Shown: piece by piece, positions 5,564 to 31,835 of the stretch
Layout of the letters: the number at the start of each line of letters is the position of its first letter
How positions within the stretch are numbered: the first letter of the stretch is position 1
Source of the DNA: Candidatus Kaiserbacteria bacterium
Lineage (GTDB): Bacteria > Patescibacteriota > Minisyncoccia > Phycocordibacterales > UBA918
Length of the DNA: 64,000 bases
Assembly: GCA_016699245.1 (NCBI GenBank)
Contig: CP064968.1
Coordinates: 835,042 to 899,041, forward strand
Reading direction: 5' to 3'
The notes under the pieces: model-generated
Told to the model about the DNA's origin: nothing
Databases searched by the model: none
Seen by the model: the letters and a program-made list of their open reading frames with translations, nothing else
Program-made: the position numbers and the translations under genes

Positions 5564-5962
5564 TTAGATAGGCAGATCAAAAGCAAAGAGACCGGCGCCG
5601 GTAATGAGGAGGGAGAGCGAAATAAAAAAGAGTAAAACATAGGTAAGTCGAGAAGGGATGAGTGGATGGGTAAAACGTTTGTGCATCATAATAAACTTCA
5701 GTGAAAGTACCATACTGAGTATGGCTGCTAATTGAGTGAGAAAGCCCACCAAAAATAGTGTTCCTATAATTATTTCCACTATACCGAGATACCACGCAAA
5801 GAAAAGTCCATACGGGAAAATGCCAGAGGATAAGGTGTCTTTGAGTGCATGGCGGTTCCGAATATGAATAATCCCGAGACGTATGAGTATAAAACCTACA
5901 CTGACACGCAAAAGAAGGTAGGCAAACGGTGCGAGAAATTGAATAGGAAAGAGATTGAGCAT
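5564..5962 (-). CDS. DoxX-family membrane protein
   Basis: 132 aa, four predicted transmembrane segments, DoxX-like N-terminus (LLRVSVGFILIRLG). Confidence 0.55.
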   Translation of the reverse strand: MLNLFPIQFLAPFAYLLLRVSVGFILIRLGIIHIRNRHALKDTLSSGIFPYGLFFAWYLGIVEIIIGTLFLVGFLTQLAAILSMVLSLKFIMMHKRFTHPLIPSRLTYVLLFFISLSLLITGAGLFAFDLPI

Positions 5963-6466: not shown

Positions 6467-7558
6467 GTGATTGCGTACCGCAACGCTAGGTGTACGATAA
6501 GAGAAAGTATTTATTCACTAGCACTATGTTGTATGGATTTTCTCAATAAGTTTAATCTCACGAATGCTCAAATTTTAAAATTTGCTGGACTTGCTCTACT
6601 TGGGTTTATTGGTCTCACTATTTTTATAAATGTGTTTTCAAACGGGCTTGGTATGAGCGGAAATACAATAAGTATGCCGCAGGGTACACCGTATGCTTCA
6701 CCTGATATGTATTATGGAGAGGCAAAACAGTCCAATCTTTCCATACGCAATGTTACGGGAGGAATGGAGCCTCAAGTGGAGGACAGTTACACATCTGGAG
6801 ATGATGGTGAAGCATATGAGGTAAAGGAATATGGCGCCACCATAGAAACGAGAAATCATGAAATAGAGTGCGCGGCAGTACATGCACTCAAAGCACGTAC
6901 TGATGTCATTTTCCAGAATGCAAATGAGTACGATAGGGGATGTTCCTACGTCTTCAAGGTGAAAAAAGAAAGTGTTGAGGAAATTCTCGGTATCGTGAAA
7001 GAACTTAATCCAAAGGAACTCACTGAAGCAAGTTATACGATACAGAAGGAAGTTGAAGACTACACGAGTGAAATTCAAATACTTCAAAACAAACTCGCAT
7101 CACTCGATAAGACGCTTGCCGATGCAATTCTTTCATATGAAAACATCACTGCGCTTGCGACGAATGCGGGAAACGTCGATAGTTTGGCAAAGATTATTGA
7201 AAGCAAACTCACCATCATTGAACGTCTTACCTCAGCACGTATTGAAACGAGTAACTCTCTCGAGCGCATGAATCGCTCGAAGGCAGAAGCACTCGATAGA
7301 CTCTTGTACACGTATTTCACGGTTTCAGTATATGAAAACAAGTTTGTCGACGGGGAAGAAATAACAAACTCATGGAAGGTTGCCGTACAACAATTTGTAC
7401 GCGATACAAACAATGCGGTGCAGGACATCAGTATTGGACTCGTGTACTTCATGCTCATGATTGTGAAGATAGGACTCTACTTTGTCATAGGACTCTTCGC
7501 AGTCCGCTTTGCATGGATGTTCGCTAAGCGCATCTGGAAAAGTGGAGAGGGGGCGTAG
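6467..7558 (+). CDS. Hypothetical membrane protein with central coiled-coil (start probably at an internal Met)
   Basis: N-terminal and C-terminal transmembrane segments around a long heptad-like region. No recognisable catalytic motif. Confidence 0.5.
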   Translation: MIAYRNARCTIRESIYSLALCCMDFLNKFNLTNAQILKFAGLALLGFIGLTIFINVFSNGLGMSGNTISMPQGTPYASPDMYYGEAKQSNLSIRNVTGGMEPQVEDSYTSGDDGEAYEVKEYGATIETRNHEIECAAVHALKARTDVIFQNANEYDRGCSYVFKVKKESVEEILGIVKELNPKELTEASYTIQKEVEDYTSEIQILQNKLASLDKTLADAILSYENITALATNAGNVDSLAKIIESKLTIIERLTSARIETSNSLERMNRSKAEALDRLLYTYFTVSVYENKFVDGEEITNSWKVAVQQFVRDTNNAVQDISIGLVYFMLMIVKIGLYFVIGLFAVRFAWMFAKRIWKSGEGA

Positions 7559-18653: not shown

Positions 18654-19721
18654 CTACGAAGCTGTTTCGTAATGTGAAACCTGGGTAAGTGGATGGTATT
18701 TCATTTTTGTGATATCAGTTATACCTACCAACGTGTCGAGAGACAGCTCGTCTGCAAAGGGTTCAAGTGCTTGTTTTGCTACTATGGCAAAGTATTTTGC
18801 TTTTGCAATTGCAACTCCTCGTTCTGCAGTGTCGACGTACGGAGCGGATATAAGGAGTAGCGCACCACCAGCCTTTAGAGCAGGGTTGCTTTTAAAATTG
18901 TTGAGCACAATCCTACCCGCAACTTCAACTGCCTCACGCCACGTACCGCCCGTATGTCCGTAGGGACCAATAATGAGCGCACGATTAGGGAGATGGAGCC
19001 AGTCAAAACCACGCCCCACACCGATAATGTTTTCGTTGTGGACGAGTTCAAGAACAGGGCGCCCCTCTTTTTTTATGCGTGCAACATGTTCACGATTGTT
19101 GAGTACAAGAGGGAGTAGGTCTCTAAGAATTTCCTCGGGTACCTCTGGGTAGAGTGTACGGAGCCGATGAGTCAACTCTGCATCTGAGAAATTGATACAG
19201 TCTGCAATGGAGAGTTCTTCACCGTTGTTTCCGCACAAAATGAGTGCATCTTCGTCGGTCTCCACACCCACTACAATCGCTGAGATGGCAGAATTATGCA
19301 TGCCAAAAATCTCATCAAACTCATGCTTGAGTGTAAATGCTCCTTCGCGTGATGCCGCAATATTGTACTTGTGTCCCGCACATCCCCGATGGTCGTTGTG
19401 TTCCTTTGAGAAGTGGAACGTGCAGAGTGCGAGTGAGGAATGTCCTTCGCGTGCGACACGCTCCACCGCATCAAGTACCAAACGACCAAGGTATGGGTCA
19501 CCCATGGTGAATATTCCACCAATGTTACGAAAAGGCTTTAAGATACCCATCGGTACACCCGTGATAAGCGGGAGATTAATTCGCCCATCCATGCATTTAA
19601 AGACAAGTATTTGTGTGGGATGCTTACCCGCATGACGAATACGGTCGTAGTACGCACCAGTGGTGTCGAATGCTCTATTGCGCTCTTCGTTGAGACTAAG
19701 AATTTCCGCTTTGAGACCCAT
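18654..19721 (-). CDS. Hypothetical protein with beta-carbonic-anhydrase-like N-terminal motifs
   Basis: CMDGRI...FRNIGG and HRGCAG resemble beta-CA CxDxR / HxxC zinc-ligand motifs. Start set at the ATG at 19719-19721, preceded by GAGAGGA. The upstream extension in the ORF track is judged spurious. Confidence 0.35.
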   Translation of the reverse strand: MGLKAEILSLNEERNRAFDTTGAYYDRIRHAGKHPTQILVFKCMDGRINLPLITGVPMGILKPFRNIGGIFTMGDPYLGRLVLDAVERVAREGHSSLALCTFHFSKEHNDHRGCAGHKYNIAASREGAFTLKHEFDEIFGMHNSAISAIVVGVETDEDALILCGNNGEELSIADCINFSDAELTHRLRTLYPEVPEEILRDLLPLVLNNREHVARIKKEGRPVLELVHNENIIGVGRGFDWLHLPNRALIIGPYGHTGGTWREAVEVAGRIVLNNFKSNPALKAGGALLLISAPYVDTAERGVAIAKAKYFAIVAKQALEPFADELSLDTLVGITDITKMKYHPLTQVSHYETAS

Positions 19722-19910
19722 GATTTTTTCCTCTCGTGTTATTAGATAATGAACTATGTAAAAAGAACTGAATCTCCGTTGAATGTGCAGTAAAACGGAA
19801 CATTCAACGGAGATAATACGTGTAGTTGTACTACAAAATATAAAAATTGTGAAGTACAACAAGATTCATTGTATTCAAGAAGTGATACGTAGAGTCAATC
19901 TTGCATCTTT

Positions 19911-20436: not shown

Positions 20437-21768
20437 CTACCATCCCAAATGCTTCATCGCATCCATGACGCGCACAAACCCACCAACATTTGCACCCTTC
20501 ACATAATCAACACGATCACCCTCTTTCCCATATTGGACACAGGTTGCATGAATGCGTTCCATAATGAGACGGAGTTCTGCATCTACTTCATCAGTAGTCC
20601 ACTGCGTGTGTCCTGCATTTTGGCTCATCTCTAGACCAGAGACCGCCACCCCACCCGCATTCACTGCTTTTGAAGGACCAAAAAGAATGCCAGCATGCTG
20701 GAATGTGTGGATTGCCTCAAGTGTGGAAGGCATGTTGGCACCTTCAGCAACAAGGAGTGCACCATTGGCGAGCATTGCTTTCGCATCAGCCTCATCAATT
20801 TCATTTTGTGTTGCTGCGGGCATGTATACCTCTGCAGCAACAGTCTGCCATGGCGTGCCCTCGTGATACTTTACCCCTTCCGGAAGCATGATGTCTTTCA
20901 GTGCCCCTTTGTTTTCCTTATGCTCTTTAACCATATCAATACATTCGCGTGTGAGTCCTTTATCACTATAGAGGTATCCTTCTCGGTCTGAGAGTGTGAG
21001 AGGAAATGCTCCTTCAGTAAGAAGTTTCTCAGCAATATGCGTGGCGACATTGCCAGAACCCGAAACAACAACACGCATATCTTTGAGGTTCTTGCCCGCA
21101 TAAGCGAGCATGTTCTTTACAAAATATACAGCGCCGTACCCCGTTGCTTCAGTACGAATGAATGATCCGCCATACCCCGTACCTTTTCCGGTAAGGGTAC
21201 CGTCGACGCGGTTTTGGAGTCTTTTATACGCGCCATAGAGATAGCCGATTTCACGACCTCCCACACCAATGTCGCCCGCAGGCACATCGGTGTTCGCACC
21301 AATGTACCGAGAAAGTTCAGTCATAAAGGCAACACAGAAACGACGCACCTCCGAGTCACTTTTCCCCTTGGGGTCAAAGTCGCTACCACCCTTACCACCA
21401 CCAAGCGGGAGGCCGGTGAGTGCGTTTTTGAATATTTGTTCAAAACCCAAGAATTTGAGTACGTCCTCATTGACTGAGGAGTCAAAGCGGAGCCCTCCCT
21501 TGTATGGACCCAGAGCAGAATTGAACTGTACACGATACCCAATGTTGGTACGTATTGCTCCGTCATCTCCTTCCCAGACAACTTTAAAGACAATCATACG
21601 TTCGGGGATAGTGAGACGTTCGAGACGAGCGTATATTTCTTCACTCGTGTTCTGTGCGGCGAGGTAGGGAATGACACTGTCAAGAAACTCGGTGAGTGCC
21701 GCACGAAAAAGTGGTTGGTGCGTGTACTTGTCGGTGATGGCGTGTATTGAGTGTTCCATGGTATTCAA
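20437..21768 (-). CDS. gdhA: NADP-specific glutamate dehydrogenase
   Basis: 443 aa with GGGKGGSDFDPKGKSDSEVRRFC and GNVA Rossmann motif; collinear with the Glu/Leu/Phe/Val dehydrogenase family. Confidence 0.95.
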   Translation of the reverse strand: MNTMEHSIHAITDKYTHQPLFRAALTEFLDSVIPYLAAQNTSEEIYARLERLTIPERMIVFKVVWEGDDGAIRTNIGYRVQFNSALGPYKGGLRFDSSVNEDVLKFLGFEQIFKNALTGLPLGGGKGGSDFDPKGKSDSEVRRFCVAFMTELSRYIGANTDVPAGDIGVGGREIGYLYGAYKRLQNRVDGTLTGKGTGYGGSFIRTEATGYGAVYFVKNMLAYAGKNLKDMRVVVSGSGNVATHIAEKLLTEGAFPLTLSDREGYLYSDKGLTRECIDMVKEHKENKGALKDIMLPEGVKYHEGTPWQTVAAEVYMPAATQNEIDEADAKAMLANGALLVAEGANMPSTLEAIHTFQHAGILFGPSKAVNAGGVAVSGLEMSQNAGHTQWTTDEVDAELRLIMERIHATCVQYGKEGDRVDYVKGANVGGFVRVMDAMKHLGW

Positions 21769-21901
21769 GAGTTACCGTTTAAGATATATATGGTATCACG
21801 AAATAGTATTGGGTTTGAAAATGAAAACAATTTCAAGTATGTATATTTGAAACTCATCCACAACATTTTCTAAATAATCATATTGATATCAGAGTTCGAG
21901 G

Positions 21902-21962
21902 TGTATACTACACGCAGACAGAACGCAAAAATCTCCTACGAATGTAGGAGATTTTTGTATTT
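21902..21962. repeat. 61-nt direct repeat, copy 1 (contains a perfect palindromic terminator-like hairpin)
   Basis: tgtatactacacgcagacagaacgcaaaaatctcctacGaatgtaggagatttttgtattt. Identical except for one nt to 25543-25603. Confidence 0.9.
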
Positions 21963-22067
21963 GGGTATTAAAGTAACCTTTTACTGCCATTTGCTCTTTT
22001 TTCTCAACTTCACTCTCTAGCATTTTGTTCGATTCAATATCGGCAGTCTGTTATAATTTTATAATCT

Positions 22068-22727
22068 ATGACAAATCTACATAGTGTTTCGAAATTTGAA
22101 AGGCCTCGTGAAAAATTGGCAAAATATGGTGTTGGAAAATTAACTAACACTGAACTCTTGGCGATATTGCTTCGAACTGGTACGAAAGAATTAAACGTAT
22201 TGAAGTTAGCTCAGGCAATTTTGCGCAAGTTCGAGGATACACAAATTGTTGATCTAACTATTGCAGATTTAAAATCAATTCACGGAATCGGTACGGTAAA
22301 AGCCTGTGAAATAATTGCTTGTTTTGAACTAGGGAAGAGAATGTTGAAAGATAAAAAGTCTACTTTGCTTTTAACCTCACAAGATGTTTGGGAACAAATG
22401 GCTGATATTCGTTCGAGTAAAAAAGAACATTTTGTGGTGTTCTATCTCGATACCAGAAATCAAGAAATCAAACGAGAAATTATTTCTGTAGGTACATTAA
22501 ACGAAAGCCTGGTACATCCTCGAGAAGTATTTGAGAGCGCTATTAAATACAATGCCGCCGCGATAATTGTGGCGCATAACCACCCATCGGGCAGTATTGA
22601 ACCGTCACAAGATGATATTGAAATCACAAAACGCCTGGTTCATGCGGGTAAAATACTCGATATCAGGGTTTTGAGTCATGTGATTGTGACAAATCAAATG
22701 CATGGTATTGTGGAGATAAATAACTAA
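22068..22727 (+). CDS. RadC-like JAB/MPN-domain protein (UPF0758)
   Basis: HhH N-terminus (LTNTELLAILLRTGTKE) and JAMM motif HNHPSGSIEPSQDD. Confidence 0.85.
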   Translation: MTNLHSVSKFERPREKLAKYGVGKLTNTELLAILLRTGTKELNVLKLAQAILRKFEDTQIVDLTIADLKSIHGIGTVKACEIIACFELGKRMLKDKKSTLLLTSQDVWEQMADIRSSKKEHFVVFYLDTRNQEIKREIISVGTLNESLVHPREVFESAIKYNAAAIIVAHNHPSGSIEPSQDDIEITKRLVHAGKILDIRVLSHVIVTNQMHGIVEINN

Positions 22728-22736
22728 CTTTAGTGT

Positions 22737-24182
22737 ATGGGGACCTATGAAACAAAAGAAAGTATTCTTGAACGAGCAGGTCTCGCTATTGATAAAAGCA
22801 TACGAGATTTTATTCCTGTCGAAGAATTGCCGATAATCGAAGCAAAGGTAGCAGAATTAAAAAACAAAGGCTATCTAGGTAACCTAGTAGAGTGGTTTGT
22901 GTTTGGTAAGAAAGCAGATTCACTCAGTCAAGCTGATTTCCATATTGCAGATATTGAGCTAAAAACTACGCCGATTAAGCATAGTACGAAGCATACGTAC
23001 GTTGCAAAAGAACGGCTCGTCTTTTCGATGATTGACTATCAAGCAATCCGATACGAAACTTGGGAGACAAGTTCATTTCTAAAAAAGAACAAGGTAATTT
23101 TACTGATGTTCTATTTATGGATGCAAAGCCAAACAGTTCTTGATTACAAATTCAAATTTGTGCATCTTCTCGATTTACTTGGCGATTTATCAGATGAGGA
23201 TGTTTTACAAATTCAGAAAGACTGGGAATTTATCGTCGCAAAAATTGGAAGGAATGAAGCGCATCTTTTATCTGAGGGTGATACGTATTATCTCGGTGCT
23301 TGTACAAAGGCGGCGAACAGCAGGGTAGTACGGGAGCAGTCGCCGGGTCATGTACCAGCAAAACCACGAGCATTTTCTCTAAAACAACAGTACATAAACT
23401 ACCTGATTCAAACAAAGTTATTACACCGAACTGTTGACGGTGATTCAATTTTCAAAAAGAGTAAAAAAGCCAAAACAGTTGAAGAAGCAGTAAACGCAAA
23501 GTTTGCTCCATATTTTGGTCAAACTGATACGGAGATTTTAAAGAAACTGGAAACAAATATCGGGAAAACCGCTAAGAGTTACAAACGTCTGGTTGTAAAT
23601 AAAATTCTTGGAGTTGATTCAGATAATATTCTGGAACTTGAAAAGGCTAATATAACTCTTCGCGTCATTACGCTTGAAAGCAATGGAACATTAAAGGAAT
23701 CAATTTCGTTTCCGGCTTTTGATTTTAAAGATTTGGTAACTCAGACATGGTATGACGATAAAGAAGAGGTAATGTCTGACTTTCATCTTCAGCTTGAAAC
23801 AAAGAAGTTTTTATTTGTTGTCTTCCAAAAGCAGGAAAATACTGATGATATAGTTTTAAGAAAAACAATGTTTTGGAATTTTCCAATGCAGGATATAGAT
23901 AAGGCTAAAGAAGTCTGGGAGATGACCATCACATTGATAAATGAAGGTAAAATTGTAAGAGAAATAAAGAAAAATAAGAGGGGTGAAGAAATAAGATATA
24001 CCCATTTCCCAGGCTCTTCATTTAACGGTGTTGCGCATGTAAGACCACACGGAAGTACACGAGAAGATATGATTGAATTGCCTGTTGCAGACGAGTTGAC
24101 GGGTATGAAAGAATACACAAAACAATGTTTTTGGTTGAATGCAAGTTATATACAACATGCAATTGAGAAAGATCAAGATTGA
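22737..24182 (+). CDS. Type II restriction endonuclease, Sau3AI/MutH-like (putative GATC specificity)
   Basis: 481 aa (R.Sau3AI is 489 aa). N-terminal MutH-like D...E-x-K motif ADFHIADIELKTTP and a second MutH-like half (DFHLQLETKKF). Immediately upstream of a C5 methyltransferase of M.Sau3AI-like size. Confidence 0.6.
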   Translation: MGTYETKESILERAGLAIDKSIRDFIPVEELPIIEAKVAELKNKGYLGNLVEWFVFGKKADSLSQADFHIADIELKTTPIKHSTKHTYVAKERLVFSMIDYQAIRYETWETSSFLKKNKVILLMFYLWMQSQTVLDYKFKFVHLLDLLGDLSDEDVLQIQKDWEFIVAKIGRNEAHLLSEGDTYYLGACTKAANSRVVREQSPGHVPAKPRAFSLKQQYINYLIQTKLLHRTVDGDSIFKKSKKAKTVEEAVNAKFAPYFGQTDTEILKKLETNIGKTAKSYKRLVVNKILGVDSDNILELEKANITLRVITLESNGTLKESISFPAFDFKDLVTQTWYDDKEEVMSDFHLQLETKKFLFVVFQKQENTDDIVLRKTMFWNFPMQDIDKAKEVWEMTITLINEGKIVREIKKNKRGEEIRYTHFPGSSFNGVAHVRPHGSTREDMIELPVADELTGMKEYTKQCFWLNASYIQHAIEKDQD

Positions 24183-24213
24183 TCATTCTTGTGTTGTTTG
24201 TTAAAATACCCCT

Positions 24214-25479
24214 ATGAAGAAAATTCGTGTTGTTGAGTTATTCGCTGGTGTTGGTGGTTTTCGTCTCGGCTTAGAGGGCTGTGAAGGCAATTCGAAACCG
24301 CATCATGATTTTTTTGAAACTGTCTGGTTTAATCAGTGGGAACCAGCTACTAAACGTCAGTATGCTCATGAAACCTACGTTTCTCGTTTTGGTGAAGCCA
24401 AACACAAACACGAATTCACTAATATCGATGTAGCGCAGGTTACTGATAAAGTCCCAGAGCACGATTTGCTTGTGGGAGGTTTTCCGTGTCAGGACTACTC
24501 GGTTGCAAAGAATCTATCAGCATCGAATGGTCTTGAAGGTAAAAAAGGAGTGCTGTGGTGGTCAATTTACGATATTTTGGTAAAGCAGGACGACAATGCC
24601 CCGCAGTATTTAATGTTAGAGAATGTTGATAGATTGATTAGCTCGCCAGCGAAGCAACGTGGACGTGATTTTGCAGTAATCCTCTCATGTTTAAATGGGC
24701 TCGGGTACACTGTGGAGTGGCGAATTGTAAATGCTGGGGAATATGGTTTTCCGCAACGCCGCCGCCGTATATTTATATTGGGGTATAAGAACGGTTCTGC
24801 TGTGCAAAAAAAGTTTGCCAAAGTTGGTAATGTGGAAAAATGGCTATGTGCATCAGGTCTTACACAAAAAGCTTTTCCAGGTACATCATTGACTGGATTC
24901 AAAACCTTTGAGATTAATCGTGACCCGGCTGAAGTATCAAAGTCATTTAATCTAGAAGACTCTAAAAATTCACCGTTTATGAATTCTGGTGTAGCAGATA
25001 ATTTTATTGTTACAACAATACGAATGTCTCCGATTTTTACGGGTAGGCAAATAGTTTTATCTGATATTCTTATTGATGAAAAGAAAGTGCCTGAAGAATA
25101 CTATATAGACAAAAAAGATTTGGAGAAATGGGTGTATTTGAAAGGTGGAAAAAACGAAAAGAGAAAAGCTAAAAATGGTTTTGAGTTTACGTATTCTGAA
25201 GGTCCGGTTGGTTTCCCTGATGCTCTTAATAAACCATCTCGTACAATTATTACAAGTGAAGGAGGCTCAACCCCATCCCGTTTTAAGCATGTTGTGAAAA
25301 CGAAAAGAGGTTTGCGGCGCCTAACCCCTATTGAACTAGAGAGACTTTGTATGTTTCCAGAAAATCATACCGAAGGAAATACTGATACTCGACGGGCTTT
25401 CTTCATGGGTAATGCGCTCGTAGTTGGTGTAATCGATAGATTAGGCGAAACGTTAATCAGGTTACATACTAAAAAGTAG
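24214..25479 (+). CDS. DNA (cytosine-5)-methyltransferase
   Basis: Motif I FAGVGGFRLGLE, motif IV GGFPCQDYSVAK, ENV motif, and a C-terminal target-recognition region. Confidence 0.9.
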   Translation: MKKIRVVELFAGVGGFRLGLEGCEGNSKPHHDFFETVWFNQWEPATKRQYAHETYVSRFGEAKHKHEFTNIDVAQVTDKVPEHDLLVGGFPCQDYSVAKNLSASNGLEGKKGVLWWSIYDILVKQDDNAPQYLMLENVDRLISSPAKQRGRDFAVILSCLNGLGYTVEWRIVNAGEYGFPQRRRRIFILGYKNGSAVQKKFAKVGNVEKWLCASGLTQKAFPGTSLTGFKTFEINRDPAEVSKSFNLEDSKNSPFMNSGVADNFIVTTIRMSPIFTGRQIVLSDILIDEKKVPEEYYIDKKDLEKWVYLKGGKNEKRKAKNGFEFTYSEGPVGFPDALNKPSRTIITSEGGSTPSRFKHVVKTKRGLRRLTPIELERLCMFPENHTEGNTDTRRAFFMGNALVVGVIDRLGETLIRLHTKK

Positions 25480-25542
25480 AACAAAATTTCATTTACCTGA
25501 TGATTTTCTTGAAATAAGATTCCTTAGGGAATATCTCTTAGA

Positions 25543-25603
25543 TGTATACTACACGCAGACAGAACGCAAAAATCTCCTACAAATGTAGGAGATTTTTGTA
25601 TTT
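25543..25603. repeat. 61-nt direct repeat, copy 2
   Basis: Same sequence as 21902-21962 with one substitution (A for G in the hairpin loop). Confidence 0.9.
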
Positions 25604-25616
25604 ATTCACTCGTTGT

Positions 25617-26321
25617 TTAAATATTTTTCAAAAATTTTTGTCTCTTGCTTTCTTCCATCCGTTCTATTGCGTAGCGTAAAGTAGTGCGAGGTAGGGAGTC
25701 GTAATATGAACGTAAAAACTCTTCGCACAACTGAGTATCTTTTTTCCACACTTCTCGGAGTGTCCAGCCGACAGCCTTCTGAGTCAGATCTTCTGTGTCA
25801 CTCAAAAGTCTCTGGGCAATTTTCAAAGAAGAGTCGAATTTTCCCTCTCGTATGAATGCCATAGTAGAAATAATAGCCACTCGGCGATACCACATATTCT
25901 CTGAGTCAGAGAGTTTGTCTAAGATACTTTCATCTATTATCCCGTTTAGAATTGCATGTCCTAAGATTTTGTACGTAGAGAGATCCACTAAGTCCCAGTT
26001 GTTTATCTGCGTTAGATTCCGGAGATAAAATTTGACTATCCTGAGACGATCCGTATTACTTTTTGCTCGTTCATATTGTGCGACCAAGATGAGGGCTCCC
26101 ACTAGCCTCTCCTCATGAATCGGTGAGTTCAATGCGTCTTGTACCTCAGACAAGGGTACATGTGCAAATTTTTTGACCACGGTACGTGCGTCGGGATTGC
26201 TGACCCCGATGAATTTGTCGCCCTCACCATACTGTCCCTTTCCCGTTTTGAAAAACCATTCATTCGTTTTCTTGCGCGAAGCACTCGCATATTTTTTCAG
26301 TTCTTTCAAAATGGCGCTCAT
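25617..26321 (-). CDS. DNA alkylation repair protein (AlkD-like HEAT-repeat glycosylase family)
   Basis: 234 aa all-helical protein with AlkD/AlkC family signature (WDLVD, WYRRVAIIS, QKAVGWTLRE). Confidence 0.7.
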   Translation of the reverse strand: MSAILKELKKYASASRKKTNEWFFKTGKGQYGEGDKFIGVSNPDARTVVKKFAHVPLSEVQDALNSPIHEERLVGALILVAQYERAKSNTDRLRIVKFYLRNLTQINNWDLVDLSTYKILGHAILNGIIDESILDKLSDSENMWYRRVAIISTMAFIREGKFDSSLKIAQRLLSDTEDLTQKAVGWTLREVWKKDTQLCEEFLRSYYDSLPRTTLRYAIERMEESKRQKFLKNI

Positions 26322-26701
26322 ATAGTTTTCTTTTCCTTTTTCTTCTTTTTCTTTGGCATAGGTAGGTGTGATGCAGTAATCTCTATGAGTTCAGAAAGCC
26401 ACTCTCTGTCATCTATATGGTCTTCATCAATTTTCATAGAGACTTTCGCACCGTTGTACGCATACCCCTCCTTATAATATTTCCCAACAAATTCTTTCCC
26501 CTCATCGGTAATTTTTACATACAGCGTATCATCACAGACTAAGCCAACAACTTTACCATCACAATACAACGCGTATTCCCCGAACATCTTTCGAGCAGAA
26601 ACATCCCCAGCCGAAGCCAGTTGATCTAAAATATAATCTATCGTTGCTTGTTTTGTTGCCATACGTATTTCGTTTACTCCAGTTATGTGCAAGAGGTCCA
26701 A
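26318..26701 (-). CDS. TfoX N-terminal domain protein
   Basis: MFGEYALYCDGKVVGLVCDDTLYVK matches the TfoX_N core. C-terminal poly-Lys tail. Confidence 0.65.
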   Translation of the reverse strand: MDLLHITGVNEIRMATKQATIDYILDQLASAGDVSARKMFGEYALYCDGKVVGLVCDDTLYVKITDEGKEFVGKYYKEGYAYNGAKVSMKIDEDHIDDREWLSELIEITASHLPMPKKKKKKEKKTI

Positions 26702-26829
26702 CCCTATCTTTATTATATATGGGATGTATACATAAAAACTTTGTTTTCACTCACTAGTTAATTGTATCAATTTCGAAGTGTACTTCCATACATCAAAAAC
26801 GAACGCCTAATTAGGCGTTCGTTTACCGG

Positions 26830-26916
26830 CGGAGGGAGAGAGATTCGAACTCTCGGTCCGGTTTCCCGGACTCTTGTTTTCAAGACAAGTGCGATCGACC
26901 ACTCCGCCATCCCTCC
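26830..26916 (-). tRNA. tRNA-Ser (anticodon TGA)
   Basis: Acceptor GGAGGGA/TCCCTCC, anticodon stem CTTGT/ACAAG, loop CTTGAAA, long variable arm, T-loop TTCGAAT, discriminator G. Confidence 0.8.
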
Positions 26917-26997: not shown

Positions 26998-27387
26998 ATG
27001 AAATTGATGGGAATAGATTATGGGACGAAGCGGGTGGGTATTGCGCTCACCGATGACAAGGGCATGATGGCGTTTCCGCGTGAGGTGCTCCCGAATGACG
27101 CATCCTTAATGAAGGGAATTGAGCGTATTGTTGCCGAGGAAAAGGTGGGGGTCATCGTGGTCGGGCATTCCCTTGGTCGCGACGGTGCTCCGAATAAAGT
27201 ACACGCGGCAGTGGAGGATTTTATTCAGGACCTCACTTTGCATATTGGGCTACCCGTAGAACTTGAGCCAGAGCACTATACGACGCAAGAAGCGATACGC
27301 TTTCAGGGAAGGAATGAAATGACTGATGCGAGTGCTGCGAGCGTTATTCTTAATAGTTACCTGTTAAAAATAGAAAATAGAAAATAG
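26998..27387 (+). CDS. Putative pre-16S rRNA nuclease / Holliday junction resolvase-like YqgF (RuvX)
   Basis: MKLMGIDYGTKRVGIALTD is the YqgF signature. The last six codons (KIENRK) and the stop lie inside the AAAATAG microsatellite. Confidence 0.85.
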   Translation: MKLMGIDYGTKRVGIALTDDKGMMAFPREVLPNDASLMKGIERIVAEEKVGVIVVGHSLGRDGAPNKVHAAVEDFIQDLTLHIGLPVELEPEHYTTQEAIRFQGRNEMTDASAASVILNSYLLKIENRK

Positions 27388-27415
27388 AAAATAGAAAATA
27401 GAAAATAGAAAATAT
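27367..27415. repeat. Heptanucleotide microsatellite (AAAATAG) x6 plus one degenerate unit
   Basis: Read directly from the sequence. It overlaps the 3' end and stop codon of the YqgF-like gene. The same heptamer array occurs at 61788-61825. Confidence 0.95.
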
Positions 27416-27464
27416 GGAATATATACGATACACACGATCTGTTACTAGTTATAAATAATGCACT

Positions 27465-30526: not shown

Positions 30527-30620
30527 AACAGTCTGGGAGACTGTTTAGGAGGTTGTCGACAGTTTCGACCAAAGGAAGAAACTGTCATACAACCTGAACA
30601 GTTCATGTAATGAAAGATTC
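30527..30620 (+). repeat. Nested-hairpin repeat family, copy in + orientation (AGGTTGT-C-GACAGTTTC...GAAACTGTC-AT-ACAACCT)
   Basis: Two concentric perfect inverted repeats read from the sequence. Related copies at 4930-4995 and 31713-31835 on the opposite strand. Confidence 0.7.
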
Positions 30621-31712: not shown

Positions 31713-31835
31713 TCTTACAGATTCTGTTCAGGTTGCACCACAAGAGTATTTCATTTTTCTAATTCGTAAACTCATAAGAAAAATTGGTCATATGACACTT
31801 TCTTCCGTTGGTCGAAATTGTCGACAACCTTTTTA
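31713..31835 (-). repeat. Nested-hairpin repeat family copy (with a 55-nt internal insertion) at the left end of the integrative element
   Basis: Reverse complement reads aggttgtcgacaatttcgaccaacggaagaaagtgtcata...caacctgaacagaatctgtaag. About 90% identical to 30541-30605 outside the insertion. Confidence 0.7.

Follow-up and report, generated by a model that had tools for sequence, protein, structure and literature searches.

A radC-headed Sau3AI-family restriction-modification operon between terminator-bearing direct repeats in a Candidatus Kaiserbacteria genome

A self-contained Sau3AI-family type II restriction-modification (RM) operon, with radC as its first gene, lies between two near-identical copies of a terminator sequence in the 1.05-Mb genome of a Candidatus Kaiserbacteria, a candidate-phyla-radiation (CPR) bacterium. 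In the window, by which we mean the whole 64-kb stretch of DNA that was analysed, the insert between the repeat copies occupies positions 21963–25539 (3577 bp), and its GC content is 37.6% compared with 44.0% in the rest of the window. The best overall explanation, which we consider reasonably probable, is that the unit of radC, the restriction endonuclease gene R and the methyltransferase gene M (the trio) was inserted at gdhA/alkD by long target duplication. The restriction system and the insertion mode are both already known, and the new point is possibly the conserved three-gene architecture in dozens of related bacteria. A full-text search of RadC-related literature found no mention of radC being linked to Sau3AI.

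Genes of the insert and their predicted regulation

The features of the region were the following, with T_L and T_R denoting the left and right repeat copies.

20437–21768, minus strand: gdhA, NADP-glutamate dehydrogenase; left flank, outside the cassette, its start facing T_L
21899–21962, plus strand: T_L, 64 nt, consisting of a 28-nt 5' part and a bidirectional terminator hairpin (21926–21957)
21963–22043, plus strand: left inner non-coding flank, 81 nt, not common to most other trio copies; only L174 aligns, from 22027 (blastn)
22044–22057, plus strand: putative extended -10 promoter (TGtTATAAT) of the radC-R transcript, conserved CTGTTATAATTTTA; left edge of the conserved module
22068–22727, plus strand: radC, 219 aa; UPF0758/HhH domain at the N-terminus, followed by a RadC-type JAB domain
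22737–24182, plus strand: R, Sau3AI-family type II restriction endonuclease, 481 aa; N-terminal domain MutH-like and catalytic, C-terminal domain an effector domain
24171–24207, plus strand: putative M promoter from a promoter scan, TTGATC (24179–24184), 17-nt spacer, TAAAAT (24202–24207)
24214–25479, plus strand: M, C5 cytosine DNA methyltransferase, 421 aa, complete
25519–25539, plus strand: right inner non-coding flank, 21 nt, without counterpart in other trio copies (blastn)
25540–25603, plus strand: T_R, 64 nt, hairpin at 25566–25599
25617–26321, minus strand: alkD; right flank, outside the cassette
26318–26701, minus strand: tfoX_N; right flank, outside the cassette
26828–26916, minus strand: tRNA-Ser(tga); right flank, outside the cassette

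The first-pass annotation had described exactly three genes between the repeats, namely a RadC-like JAB protein, a 481-aa MutH-like endonuclease with the size and architecture of R.Sau3AI, and a 421-aa C5 methyltransferase of the size of M.Sau3AI. This description held, with radC, R and M the only genes given between the repeats by the list of open reading frames (ORFs). RadC was found to be a canonical member of its family with both HhH and JAB domains, matching Pfam PF20582 (2e-23) and PF04002 (3.2e-40), NCBIfam NF000642 (231 bits, cutoff 180) and PDB 2qlc (E=1.3e-27). Its JAB metal-binding motif HNHPSG..PS..D is intact and at least 95% conserved in 41 RadC proteins of the trios. R, which starts 9 nt past the radC stop, matched the equivalog model NF040973 at 446.6 bits (cutoff 300) over model positions 1–474 of 475, and PDB 4pxg over residues 3–477 (E=1.6e-53); its C-terminal domain alone matched 2reu/7xm0 at about 1e-17, and PADLOC assigned the protein to REase_II. 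The catalytic motif D-x6-E-x-K corresponds to D67, E74 and K76, which were invariant in an alignment of 20 homologues and align with the active-site segment of Sau3AI/MutH. A lack of MutH/Sau3AI similarity in the 481-aa protein had been named in the first-pass annotation as grounds for refutation, and R clearly has that similarity. In the translation of M we could read motifs I (FAGVGG), IV (GGFPCQ), VI (LENV), VIII (PQRRRR) and X (MGNA), and M matched PF00145 (2.4e-57, residues 4–415), TIGR00675 (210 bits) and, over its full length, PADLOC MTase_II (518 bits).

The closest plasmid homologues of M were 43–47% identical over the full length. In the two closest ones inspected the partner is a Sau3AI-family or BglII/BstYI-family enzyme, both of which cut GATC-core sites. 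From family membership, R would cleave GATC specifically at unmethylated sites, and M would protect the host DNA as GAT(m5)C. A count of GATC against expectation had been named beforehand as a check, and the site was depleted as predicted, with 90 occurrences in the window against about 198–254 expected (254 ± 15 in one estimate). Of the 256 tetramers, none was more strongly depleted in the window than GATC (ratio 0.45); the insert has 3 sites where 13 are expected, and outside it the ratio was 0.47. The depletion outside the insert shows a long exposure of the lineage to such systems and not a new arrival.

The sequence CTGTTATAATTTTA at 22044–22057 is common to L085 and L174, and the homology between the trios begins there. 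It is a candidate promoter from which radC and R would be transcribed together. M would have a promoter of its own, with TTGATC as the -35 hexamer. Two GATC sites 10 nt apart (24171 and 24181), two of only three in the insert, overlap the last codons and the stop of R, and a GATC was present in the -35 region of the M promoter at 64 of 67 homologous loci. With this hexamer, the expression of M is probably governed by the methylation state of its own recognition site or by its occupancy by M. Transcription of the trio would stop at the hairpin of T_R.

Recurrence of the trio and the place of RadC

The trio was found again, 76–89% identical at the DNA level, in no fewer than five further contexts (L084/85, L179, L174, L175/177 and L176). 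In blastn comparisons the homology with other contexts begins 1–41 nt before the radC ATG, and it extends 2 and 39 nt beyond the M stop (L085 and L175/176; two contigs continuing past M at high identity). In these alignments the trio is the conserved unit. Its neighbours are diverse: no flanking gene family was present in more than 5 of the 85 loci, except for Vsr, which adjoins M in 13.

RadC is regularly part of this unit. Among 65 metagenome loci that were informative, 46 have radC upstream of R and on its strand; in six contexts radC forms the left edge of the conserved module, and it is inside the target duplications both in the window and in L107 (described below). The pairwise divergence of RadC correlated with that of R (r = 0.78), as did that of M (r = 0.76). 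We tentatively propose, while holding it to be rather doubtful, that RadC functions as the third member of a Sau3AI-type restriction-modification system, in a radC-R-M variant widespread among CPR bacteria. Possible roles would be to process or repair GATC breaks or nicks, to temper self-restriction, or to couple restriction to DNA uptake. If RadC were such a component, the long-orphan RadC family would gain its first defined genetic partner.

The repeats and a proposed route of insertion

The repeats had earlier been described as 61 nt long with one mismatch, each carrying a palindrome with a 13-bp stem. They are real, and form the core (21902–21962 and 25543–25603) of a longer direct repeat of 64 nt (T), the copies of which are identical at 62 of 64 nt (97%) and start 3641 nt apart. 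The palindrome is also present, with a stem that measured 14–15 bp in each copy, in the arrangement A5-TCTCCTAC-loop-GTAGGAGA-T5. The folding energy of the hairpin was -23 to -26 kcal/mol (z = -5.4 to -6.0 compared to shuffled sequence), and it had a terminator score on both strands. T_L is located between the divergent gdhA and radC and terminates nothing there; T_R, between the convergent M and alkD, probably terminates both genes. An independent assembly of the same sample (Logan SRR11674051, L002) recovered both inner junctions with the copy-specific variant bases, and the duplication is therefore not an assembly artefact.

T was absent from all other trio copies compared. L091 carries a single 88%-identical copy immediately right of gdhA, without the trio, and T_L has the same base as this copy at both variable positions. 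The absence from other trios and the single copy without a trio indicate that T is resident target DNA and not cassette DNA. The proposal that a cassette carrying its terminator had been inserted between gdhA and alkD is supported indirectly as to the insertion, by the trio's changes of context, the low GC and the lack of integrase or transposase genes among the annotated ORFs within about 10 kb, and falls for the terminator as cargo. A genome with one repeat copy and no cassette had also been named as a check. L091 provides the single copy beside gdhA, but its locus is rearranged, with gdhA inverted relative to the window and alkD/tfoX and nudix absent. Among the relatives no clean empty site (gdhA-T-alkD) was recovered, the contigs of the closest ones, L083 and L090, ending at or before the junction.

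Related genomes differ among themselves between the tRNA-Arg(gcg) block and tRNA-Ser(tga). We propose that the unit entered this variable region adjoining tRNA-Ser(tga), between gdhA and alkD, by the 'insertion with long target duplication' known for RM systems and without a recombinase of its own. In the process the 64-bp intergenic terminator resident between alkD and gdhA would have been duplicated, leaving one copy on each side of the trio; an equivalent route would be that a circle with a copy of the target integrated by a single crossover. Recombination between the T copies would remove the trio precisely. To our knowledge, the mechanism by which long target duplications originate has been established in no organism. 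Repeats comparable to those of the window occur at two or three further loci of the family: in L107 the trio lies within a 44-nt repeat formed by duplication of the 5' end of a PIF1-like helicase gene, in L154 R-M lies within an 85-nt repeat of apparently coding DNA (by eye, a galactokinase 5' end), and L167 has a weaker 32-nt repeat.

We consider it unlikely that the trio has long resided in the tRNA-Ser(tga) hotspot by vertical inheritance and that its flanks have moved instead, either nudix-gdhA on the left or alkD-tfoX with the terminator on the right. Such a history is suggested by L174, in which a related trio directly adjoins tRNA-Ser(tga)-ruvX-pilMNO, the same macro-locus, without a repeat. 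The amino acid identities of this trio with that of the window (RadC 82%, R 82%, M 67%) resemble those of the flanking core genes (74–86%), so the trio could be old at the locus. The inversion of gdhA and the lack of nudix in L091, the presence of alkD-tfoX in other contexts in L083, L088 and L089, and the depletion of GATC beyond the insert, which implies age, point the same way. However, moving flanks would require that the 64-nt sequence arrived twice independently, or that it was duplicated and by chance came to bracket the trio exactly. Moreover, the T copies are 97% identical, whereas the trio differs from that of L174 by about 24% of its DNA, and the duplication must therefore be much younger than that split. 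The trio also changes context elsewhere, and in L107 it lies between the copies of a different long target duplication. The GATC depletion and the L174 trio at the same tRNA-Ser/ruvX hotspot indicate that the lineage has long been acquainted with such systems, and in the preferred reading of a long target duplication the arrival may have been a re-insertion or replacement rather than a first contact.

It is improbable that T is a dispersed intergenic repeat, terminator or REP/MITE-like, with the RM unit placed between two of its members or captured by homologous recombination, a situation corresponding to the class named 'chance insertion between repeated sequences'. In keeping with dispersal, T has diverged less between the window and L091 (88% identity) than has the neighbouring gdhA DNA (75%), other short palindromic repeat families are present in these genomes, and the L083 contig stops where T has its outer edge. 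In the sequences searched, however, T is not a ubiquitous intergenic terminator, which the first-pass annotation had named as grounds for refutation: there were two copies in the 64-kb window and none in shuffled sequence, about 2 Mb of related loci gave a single one, and the JGI and viral collections gave no exact match. The L091 copy occupies the equivalent position, immediately beside gdhA on its right, and this points to orthology and not to dispersal. A Pfam scan of the insert and the annotated neighbouring ORFs within about 10 kb gave no integrase, transposase or phage genes. An integrase-mediated island at the tRNA gene was rejected, there being no integrase among these ORFs, no similarity of the repeat to tRNA-Ser, and only one occurrence of the tRNA 3'-end motif, in the tRNA itself. 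A unit borne by an insertion sequence (IS) or composite transposon was likewise rejected, as the window has no IS and no terminal inverted repeats. That the repeats are attL and attR of a recombinase encoded elsewhere or lost, or that an IS delivered the unit, we regard as very improbable. The region does adjoin tRNA-Ser, L091 has tRNA-Ser-3'-like fragments typical of serial integration, and in another genome (L084-L086) an IS1595-family element lies 60–200 nt left of the trio. Against both stand the lack of integrase and transposase genes among the ORFs scanned, the difference of the repeat from any tRNA fragment and the lack of terminal inverted repeats in the insert. The IS of L085, moreover, is bounded by 28-bp inverted repeats and does not include the trio, the element being beside and not around it in L084-L086.

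Comparison with known systems

The operon resembles the Sau3AI system of Staphylococcus aureus 3A (PDB 4pxg/2reu/7xm0) in having a full-length R with both MutH-like domains and D-x6-E-x-K, a partner C5 methyltransferase of about 420 aa and, as predicted from sequence, GATC as the target. It differs in that R is only about 30–40% identical to R.Sau3AI in a gapped alignment, that radC stands in front of R and M in a colinear radC-R-M order, and that the host is a CPR bacterium. We know of no radC in the S. aureus Sau3AI system.

Long-target-duplication insertions were defined by Furuta, Abe and Kobayashi (2010, PMC2853133) as having R and M inside, an insert below 20 kb, a repeat above 30 bp and no other mobile element, and were described in Helicobacter pylori, Haemophilus influenzae and others, mostly naturally competent species. 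Here R and M are inside a 3577-bp insert, the 64-bp repeat is identical at 62 of 64 positions, and there was no mobility gene among the ORFs scanned. The short insert (3.6 kb), the near-identical repeat of resident DNA and the GC below that of the surroundings are shared features. In contrast to those insertions, the window's has a third gene, radC, its duplicated target is a whole bidirectional terminator, and the comparison with a single-copy locus is partial, L091 being rearranged.

Control of the M promoter through its own recognition site has been reported for CfrBI and LlaDII (reviewed in PMC3874152). The own recognition sequence, GATC, is similarly within the predicted M promoter here, in the -35 hexamer, and is conserved across the family. 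Unlike in those systems, the predicted promoter runs through the final codons and stop of R, the gene before M, instead of lying in a divergent intergenic region; there are usually two sites 10 nt apart, and the regulation is inferred from sequence. According to PMC10059834, the immigration control region of Listeria monocytogenes is a chromosomal hotspot with alternative RM cassettes, some of them Sau3AI-like. It may be a parallel case, a fixed hotspot with Sau3AI-like cassettes in a different organism and between different flanks.

RadC is also known from antirestriction modules of mobile elements, as RadC/ArdB and RadC-ArdC fusions (PMC3239186, PMC5512222, PMC12458937). Both cases show genetic linkage of a RadC-type JAB domain with the conflict between restriction and anti-restriction. 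The protein found here is, in contrast, the long chromosomal form of RadC with the HhH N-terminal domain, and it heads an RM operon, on the side of restriction, rather than accompanying ArdB or ArdC in an invading element.

A repeat-bracketed radC-R-M module

Two 64-nt direct repeats (T), 62/64 identical (97%) and lying 3641 nt apart, were found to bracket radC, a restriction endonuclease gene (R) and a methyltransferase gene (M). The first-pass annotation had described a 61-nt repeat core with one mismatch, which is contained within the 64-nt copies, and exactly three genes between the repeats; radC, R and M are indeed the only ORFs enclosed. The locus has the following layout.

Left of T_L, minus strand: gdhA
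21899-21962, plus strand: T_L, left copy of the 64-nt direct repeat
22068-22727, plus strand: radC, ORF between the T copies
22737-24182, plus strand: R, ORF between the T copies
24214-25479, plus strand: M, ORF between the T copies
25540-25603, plus strand: T_R, right copy of the 64-nt direct repeat
Right of T_R, minus strand: alkD, tfoX_N and tRNA-Ser(tga)

Over its full length R scored 446.6 bits (cutoff 300) with the NCBIfam equivalog "Sau3AI family type II restriction endonuclease", and its residues 3-477 aligned with the R.Sau3AI crystal-structure chain 4pxg (E=1.6e-53), with the C-terminal effector domain (2reu, 7xm0) included. The MutH-type residues D67, E74 and K76 were invariant in 20 homologues. 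M is a complete C5 methyltransferase (PF00145, TIGR00675; PADLOC MTase_II, 518 bits over the full length), and all canonical motifs of these enzymes could be read in its sequence. The nearest plasmid homologues of M were 43-47% identical over the full length, and the two that were inspected adjoin a Sau3AI-family or BglII/BstYI-family enzyme; both families cut GATC-core sites. RadC is of the canonical long type, in which a UPF0758/HhH domain at the N-terminus precedes a JAB domain (231 bits on NF000642; match to PDB 2qlc), and none of the PADLOC models matched it. Based on these profile and structure-chain matches, the earlier assignments to a RadC-like JAB protein, a Sau3AI/MutH-like endonuclease and a C5 methyltransferase were correct. 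Searching viral contigs with the R-family profile returned no relatives and thus gave no indication that the unit is carried by phages.

Each T copy ends in a palindrome, A5-TCTCCTAC-(4 nt)-GTAGGAGA-T5, with a predicted folding energy of -23 to -26 kcal/mol (z = -5.4 to -6.0 vs shuffles) and a positive intrinsic terminator score on both strands. No third copy was present in the 64-kb window, and shuffles yielded none. An exact search with T gave no match in JGI metagenomes or in viral contigs, and comparison with Rfam gave sub-threshold chance matches only. Both inner junctions, each with its copy-specific variant base, were also found in an independent Logan assembly (contig L002, run SRR11674051), which shows that the T-trio-T structure is no misassembly. 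The end overlap of L002 does not count as evidence of a circular form, since a de Bruijn graph gives such an overlap at a repeat. The insert's GC content was 37.6% compared to 44.0% in the rest of the window. Neither an integrase nor a transposase was detected, either inside the insert or in the annotated ORFs up to about 10 kb away, and no tRNA-Ser 3' fragment was found flanking the cassette.

Two further features were observed in the window. A tandem 7-nt repeat (AAAATAG, about 7 copies) at 27367-27421 overlaps the ruvX stop codon. A 402-aa ORF at 18654-19862, conserved in the related contig L091, had a weak match to the catalytic domain of CsoSCA (E=1.5e-5), a carboxysome-shell carbonic anhydrase that is unexpected in a bacterium of the candidate phyla radiation (CPR).

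Origin of the repeat and history of the locus

The related contig L091 carries a single T-like copy of 59 nt (2482-2540), 88% identical and sharing both its 5' part and its hairpin with the window's copies. It lies 24 nt past the stop codon of gdhA and, like T_L in the window, to the right of this gene, and is followed by tRNA-Ser(tga) and then ruvX; the trio is absent. The gdhA protein of L091 is 84% identical to that of the window, and the adjacent gdhA DNA only about 75%. At both positions that differ between T_L and T_R, T_L agrees with L091. Because L091 has a single T without the trio, T is resident DNA of the locus that was duplicated, and was not brought by the cassette. The non-hairpin 5' part of T (GTATACT.CACGCAGAC.GAACGC), conserved between the window and L091, had no Rfam match.

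Based on exact-protein look-ups and blastn, the trio was located in five further contexts.

Foreign contexts of the trio (identity of DNA to the window)
L084/L085/L086: 87%; adjoins an IS1595-family element; transposase fragments, KilA-N and type I hsdR downstream
L179: 85%; preceded by an uncharacterised 145-aa ORF
L175/L177: 78%; HATPase_c gene downstream
L176: 78%; 566-aa ORF upstream; right flank off the contig
L174: 76%; adjoins tRNA-Ser(tga); upstream genes differ

In every context the left edge of homology was found 1-41 nt 5' of the radC ATG. The right edge was 2 and 39 nt past the M stop (L085, L175/176), as seen in two contigs continuing past M at high identity. The 64-nt T sequence was absent from all five contexts. 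Comparable duplications were detected around other family members: a 44-nt direct repeat, a duplication of the initial codons of a PIF1-like helicase gene, encloses the whole trio in L107, an 85-nt repeat of apparently coding DNA (galactokinase 5' end, read by eye) encloses an R-M pair in L154, and L167 has a weaker repeat of 32 nt. Insertion as a cassette is the best-supported explanation of the T-bracketed trio. The first-pass annotation had proposed a cassette carrying a duplicated terminator; the cassette is retained, and the terminator is, as L091 indicates, duplicated target DNA instead of cargo. That homologous trios often lie on contigs of 3.3-3.75 kb was weighed as evidence of mobility and dropped as too weak.

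A clean empty allele (gdhA-T-alkD) was not found among the related contigs examined. L091 differs from the window in that gdhA is inverted and nudix, alkD and tfoX are absent; of the nearest relatives, the contig of L083 (alkD 92%) breaks off at T's outer edge and that of L090 (gdhA 94%) stops 86 nt upstream of gdhA. Exact matches to the alkD and R proteins were found only on short Logan contigs breaking inside T. A gdhA search of the genome contig collection gave only matches of at most 58% identity from unrelated phyla and no close relatives.

In L174 a related trio directly adjoins tRNA-Ser(tga)-ruvX-tRNA_bind-pilMNO, the same macro-locus as in the window, with no repeat. This trio (RadC 82%, R 82%, M 67% aa) has diverged about as far as the core genes on its flanks (74-86% aa). 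As the related genomes differ between the tRNA-Arg(gcg) block and tRNA-Ser(tga), the L174 trio included, this interval has been a variable hotspot for a long time. Before the present duplication the trio may already have occupied the hotspot, and the 97% identity of the T copies dates only that duplication as recent. The tfoX_N (26318-26701) and alkD (25617-26321) genes overlap by 4 nt and are kept together in L083, L088 and L089 despite differing surroundings, which indicates a second small travelling gene pair at the hotspot.

Several other structures were observed around the trio and its relatives. The IS1595-family element (28-bp terminal inverted repeats; L084 6928-7889, L085 324-1286, also L086) lies 60-200 nt left of the trio in the nearest foreign copy (R 94% identical). 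Long inverted repeats bracket the trio in L098 (3418-3554 / 7293-7429; 137 nt, 99%) and, at the contig ends, in L100 (1-123 / 5619-5741; 123 nt, 100%); they may have arisen in assembly or may mark a transposon-like version of the unit. Three palindromic units, each of about 100 nt, lie between T and tRNA-Ser(tga) in L091 (2541-3000); their ends mimic the tRNA-Ser 3' end, and ARAGORN did not call them as tRNAs. Their 50-nt core occurs twice in the window (30550-30599, 31791-31833), and they may represent a MITE-like family or old attachment-site remnants. Identities of M and R to the window were discordant: M of L175 was 91% identical (aa) though R only 81%, and M of L174 67% with R at 82%. Such a mosaic module points to recombination inside it.

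GATC depletion and the predicted M promoter

As suggested in the first-pass annotation, GATC sites were counted in the window, and 90 were found vs 254 +/- 15 from dinucleotide shuffles. With a second-order Markov model 198 were expected, and GATC was the most depleted of the 256 tetramers (ratio 0.45). The ratio was 0.47 outside the insert, and depletion was stronger inside it, with 3 sites vs 13 expected. The depletion fits GATC as the target, and implies that the GATC pressure on the lineage is old. The second most depleted tetramer was AGCT, nearly as strongly as GATC (80 observed, 159 expected, ratio 0.50), followed by CTAG, GGCC and CCGG. The AGCT count may reflect a further restriction pressure on the lineage, of AluI type.

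The gap between radC and R is 9 nt. Just 5' of radC lies CTGTTATAATTTTA, common to other module copies (L085, L174), which looks like an extended -10 element. A promoter scan 5' of M gave TTGATC-17-TAAAAT at 24179-24207. This predicted promoter has a GATC inside its -35 hexamer and a second GATC 10 nt further upstream; besides this pair the insert has just one GATC site. When the 90 nt 5' of the M start were aligned from 67 homologous loci (R identity 44-100%), GATC was found at the corresponding -35 position in 64/67, and the GATC-N6-GATC pair in about half. In the CfrBI and LlaDII systems the M promoter responds to whether the recognition site of the system itself is methylated (PMC3874152). 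The trio resembles them in having its own presumed recognition site within the predicted M promoter, and by analogy we infer that this promoter would be controlled by the methylation state of its GATC. The GATC-bearing -35 hexamer of M is a simple candidate for a self-regulation circuit.

Linkage of radC and comparison with known systems

A profile made from 20 R homologues detected 80 loci in JGI metagenomes, giving 84 together with L084-L087, and radC linkage was counted in the 65 whose sequence extended 800 nt or more upstream of R. radC was directly upstream of R on the same strand (gap 5-170 nt) in 39/65, and upstream with other genes between in 7/65. The remaining 19/65 had no radC upstream of R, and in most of these R was below 56% identity. 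The wedged genes were themselves of defence or nuclease type (PDC-S53, an OLD-family nuclease, AbiU/AIPR, PDC-M43A/B, a small nuclease resembling NOV_C/Hjc), and the radC-R junction may be a mini hotspot for defence genes; the wedge loci include L093, L104, L108, L110, L111 and L119. No flanking gene family occurred in more than 5 loci, except Vsr, which adjoined M in 13. Vsr-type very-short-patch repair endonucleases are the usual companions of m5C methylases; they were recognised by eye from sequence beside R-M (e.g. L121 2843-3304, L135 6392-6799), and no Vsr gene was found in the window.

In pairwise comparisons of 27 complete trios, RadC identity followed R identity (r = 0.78) as well as M identity did (r = 0.76), and none of 2000 permutations in a Mantel test reached the observed value. 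The JAB motif was at least 95% conserved in 41 trio RadCs. These sequence comparisons show a stable radC-R linkage and purifying selection. Co-divergence would be seen for any co-inherited genes, and so does not establish a role of RadC in restriction.

To our knowledge, members of the RadC family occur in nearly all bacteria, and no function has been established for them. RadC has been described as functionally unassigned, with a predicted role in nucleic-acid processing, and has been linked to antirestriction modules on mobile elements (PMC3239186, PMC5512222, PMC12458937). No report of a radC-Sau3AI operon was found in the RadC-related full-text literature searched. Its conserved position at the head of a restriction operon, seen in dozens of independent loci, gives radC a concrete, testable genetic context, and the radC-R-M variant deserves modest follow-up.

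[quoted passage not shown] Sau3AI-type systems are well known, and restriction-modification units bracketed by long target-DNA duplications have reportedly been described since 2000. Both the system and its mode of insertion are of known kinds; as far as we have checked, neither the conserved radC-R-M architecture nor the predicted M promoter with its GATC has been described.
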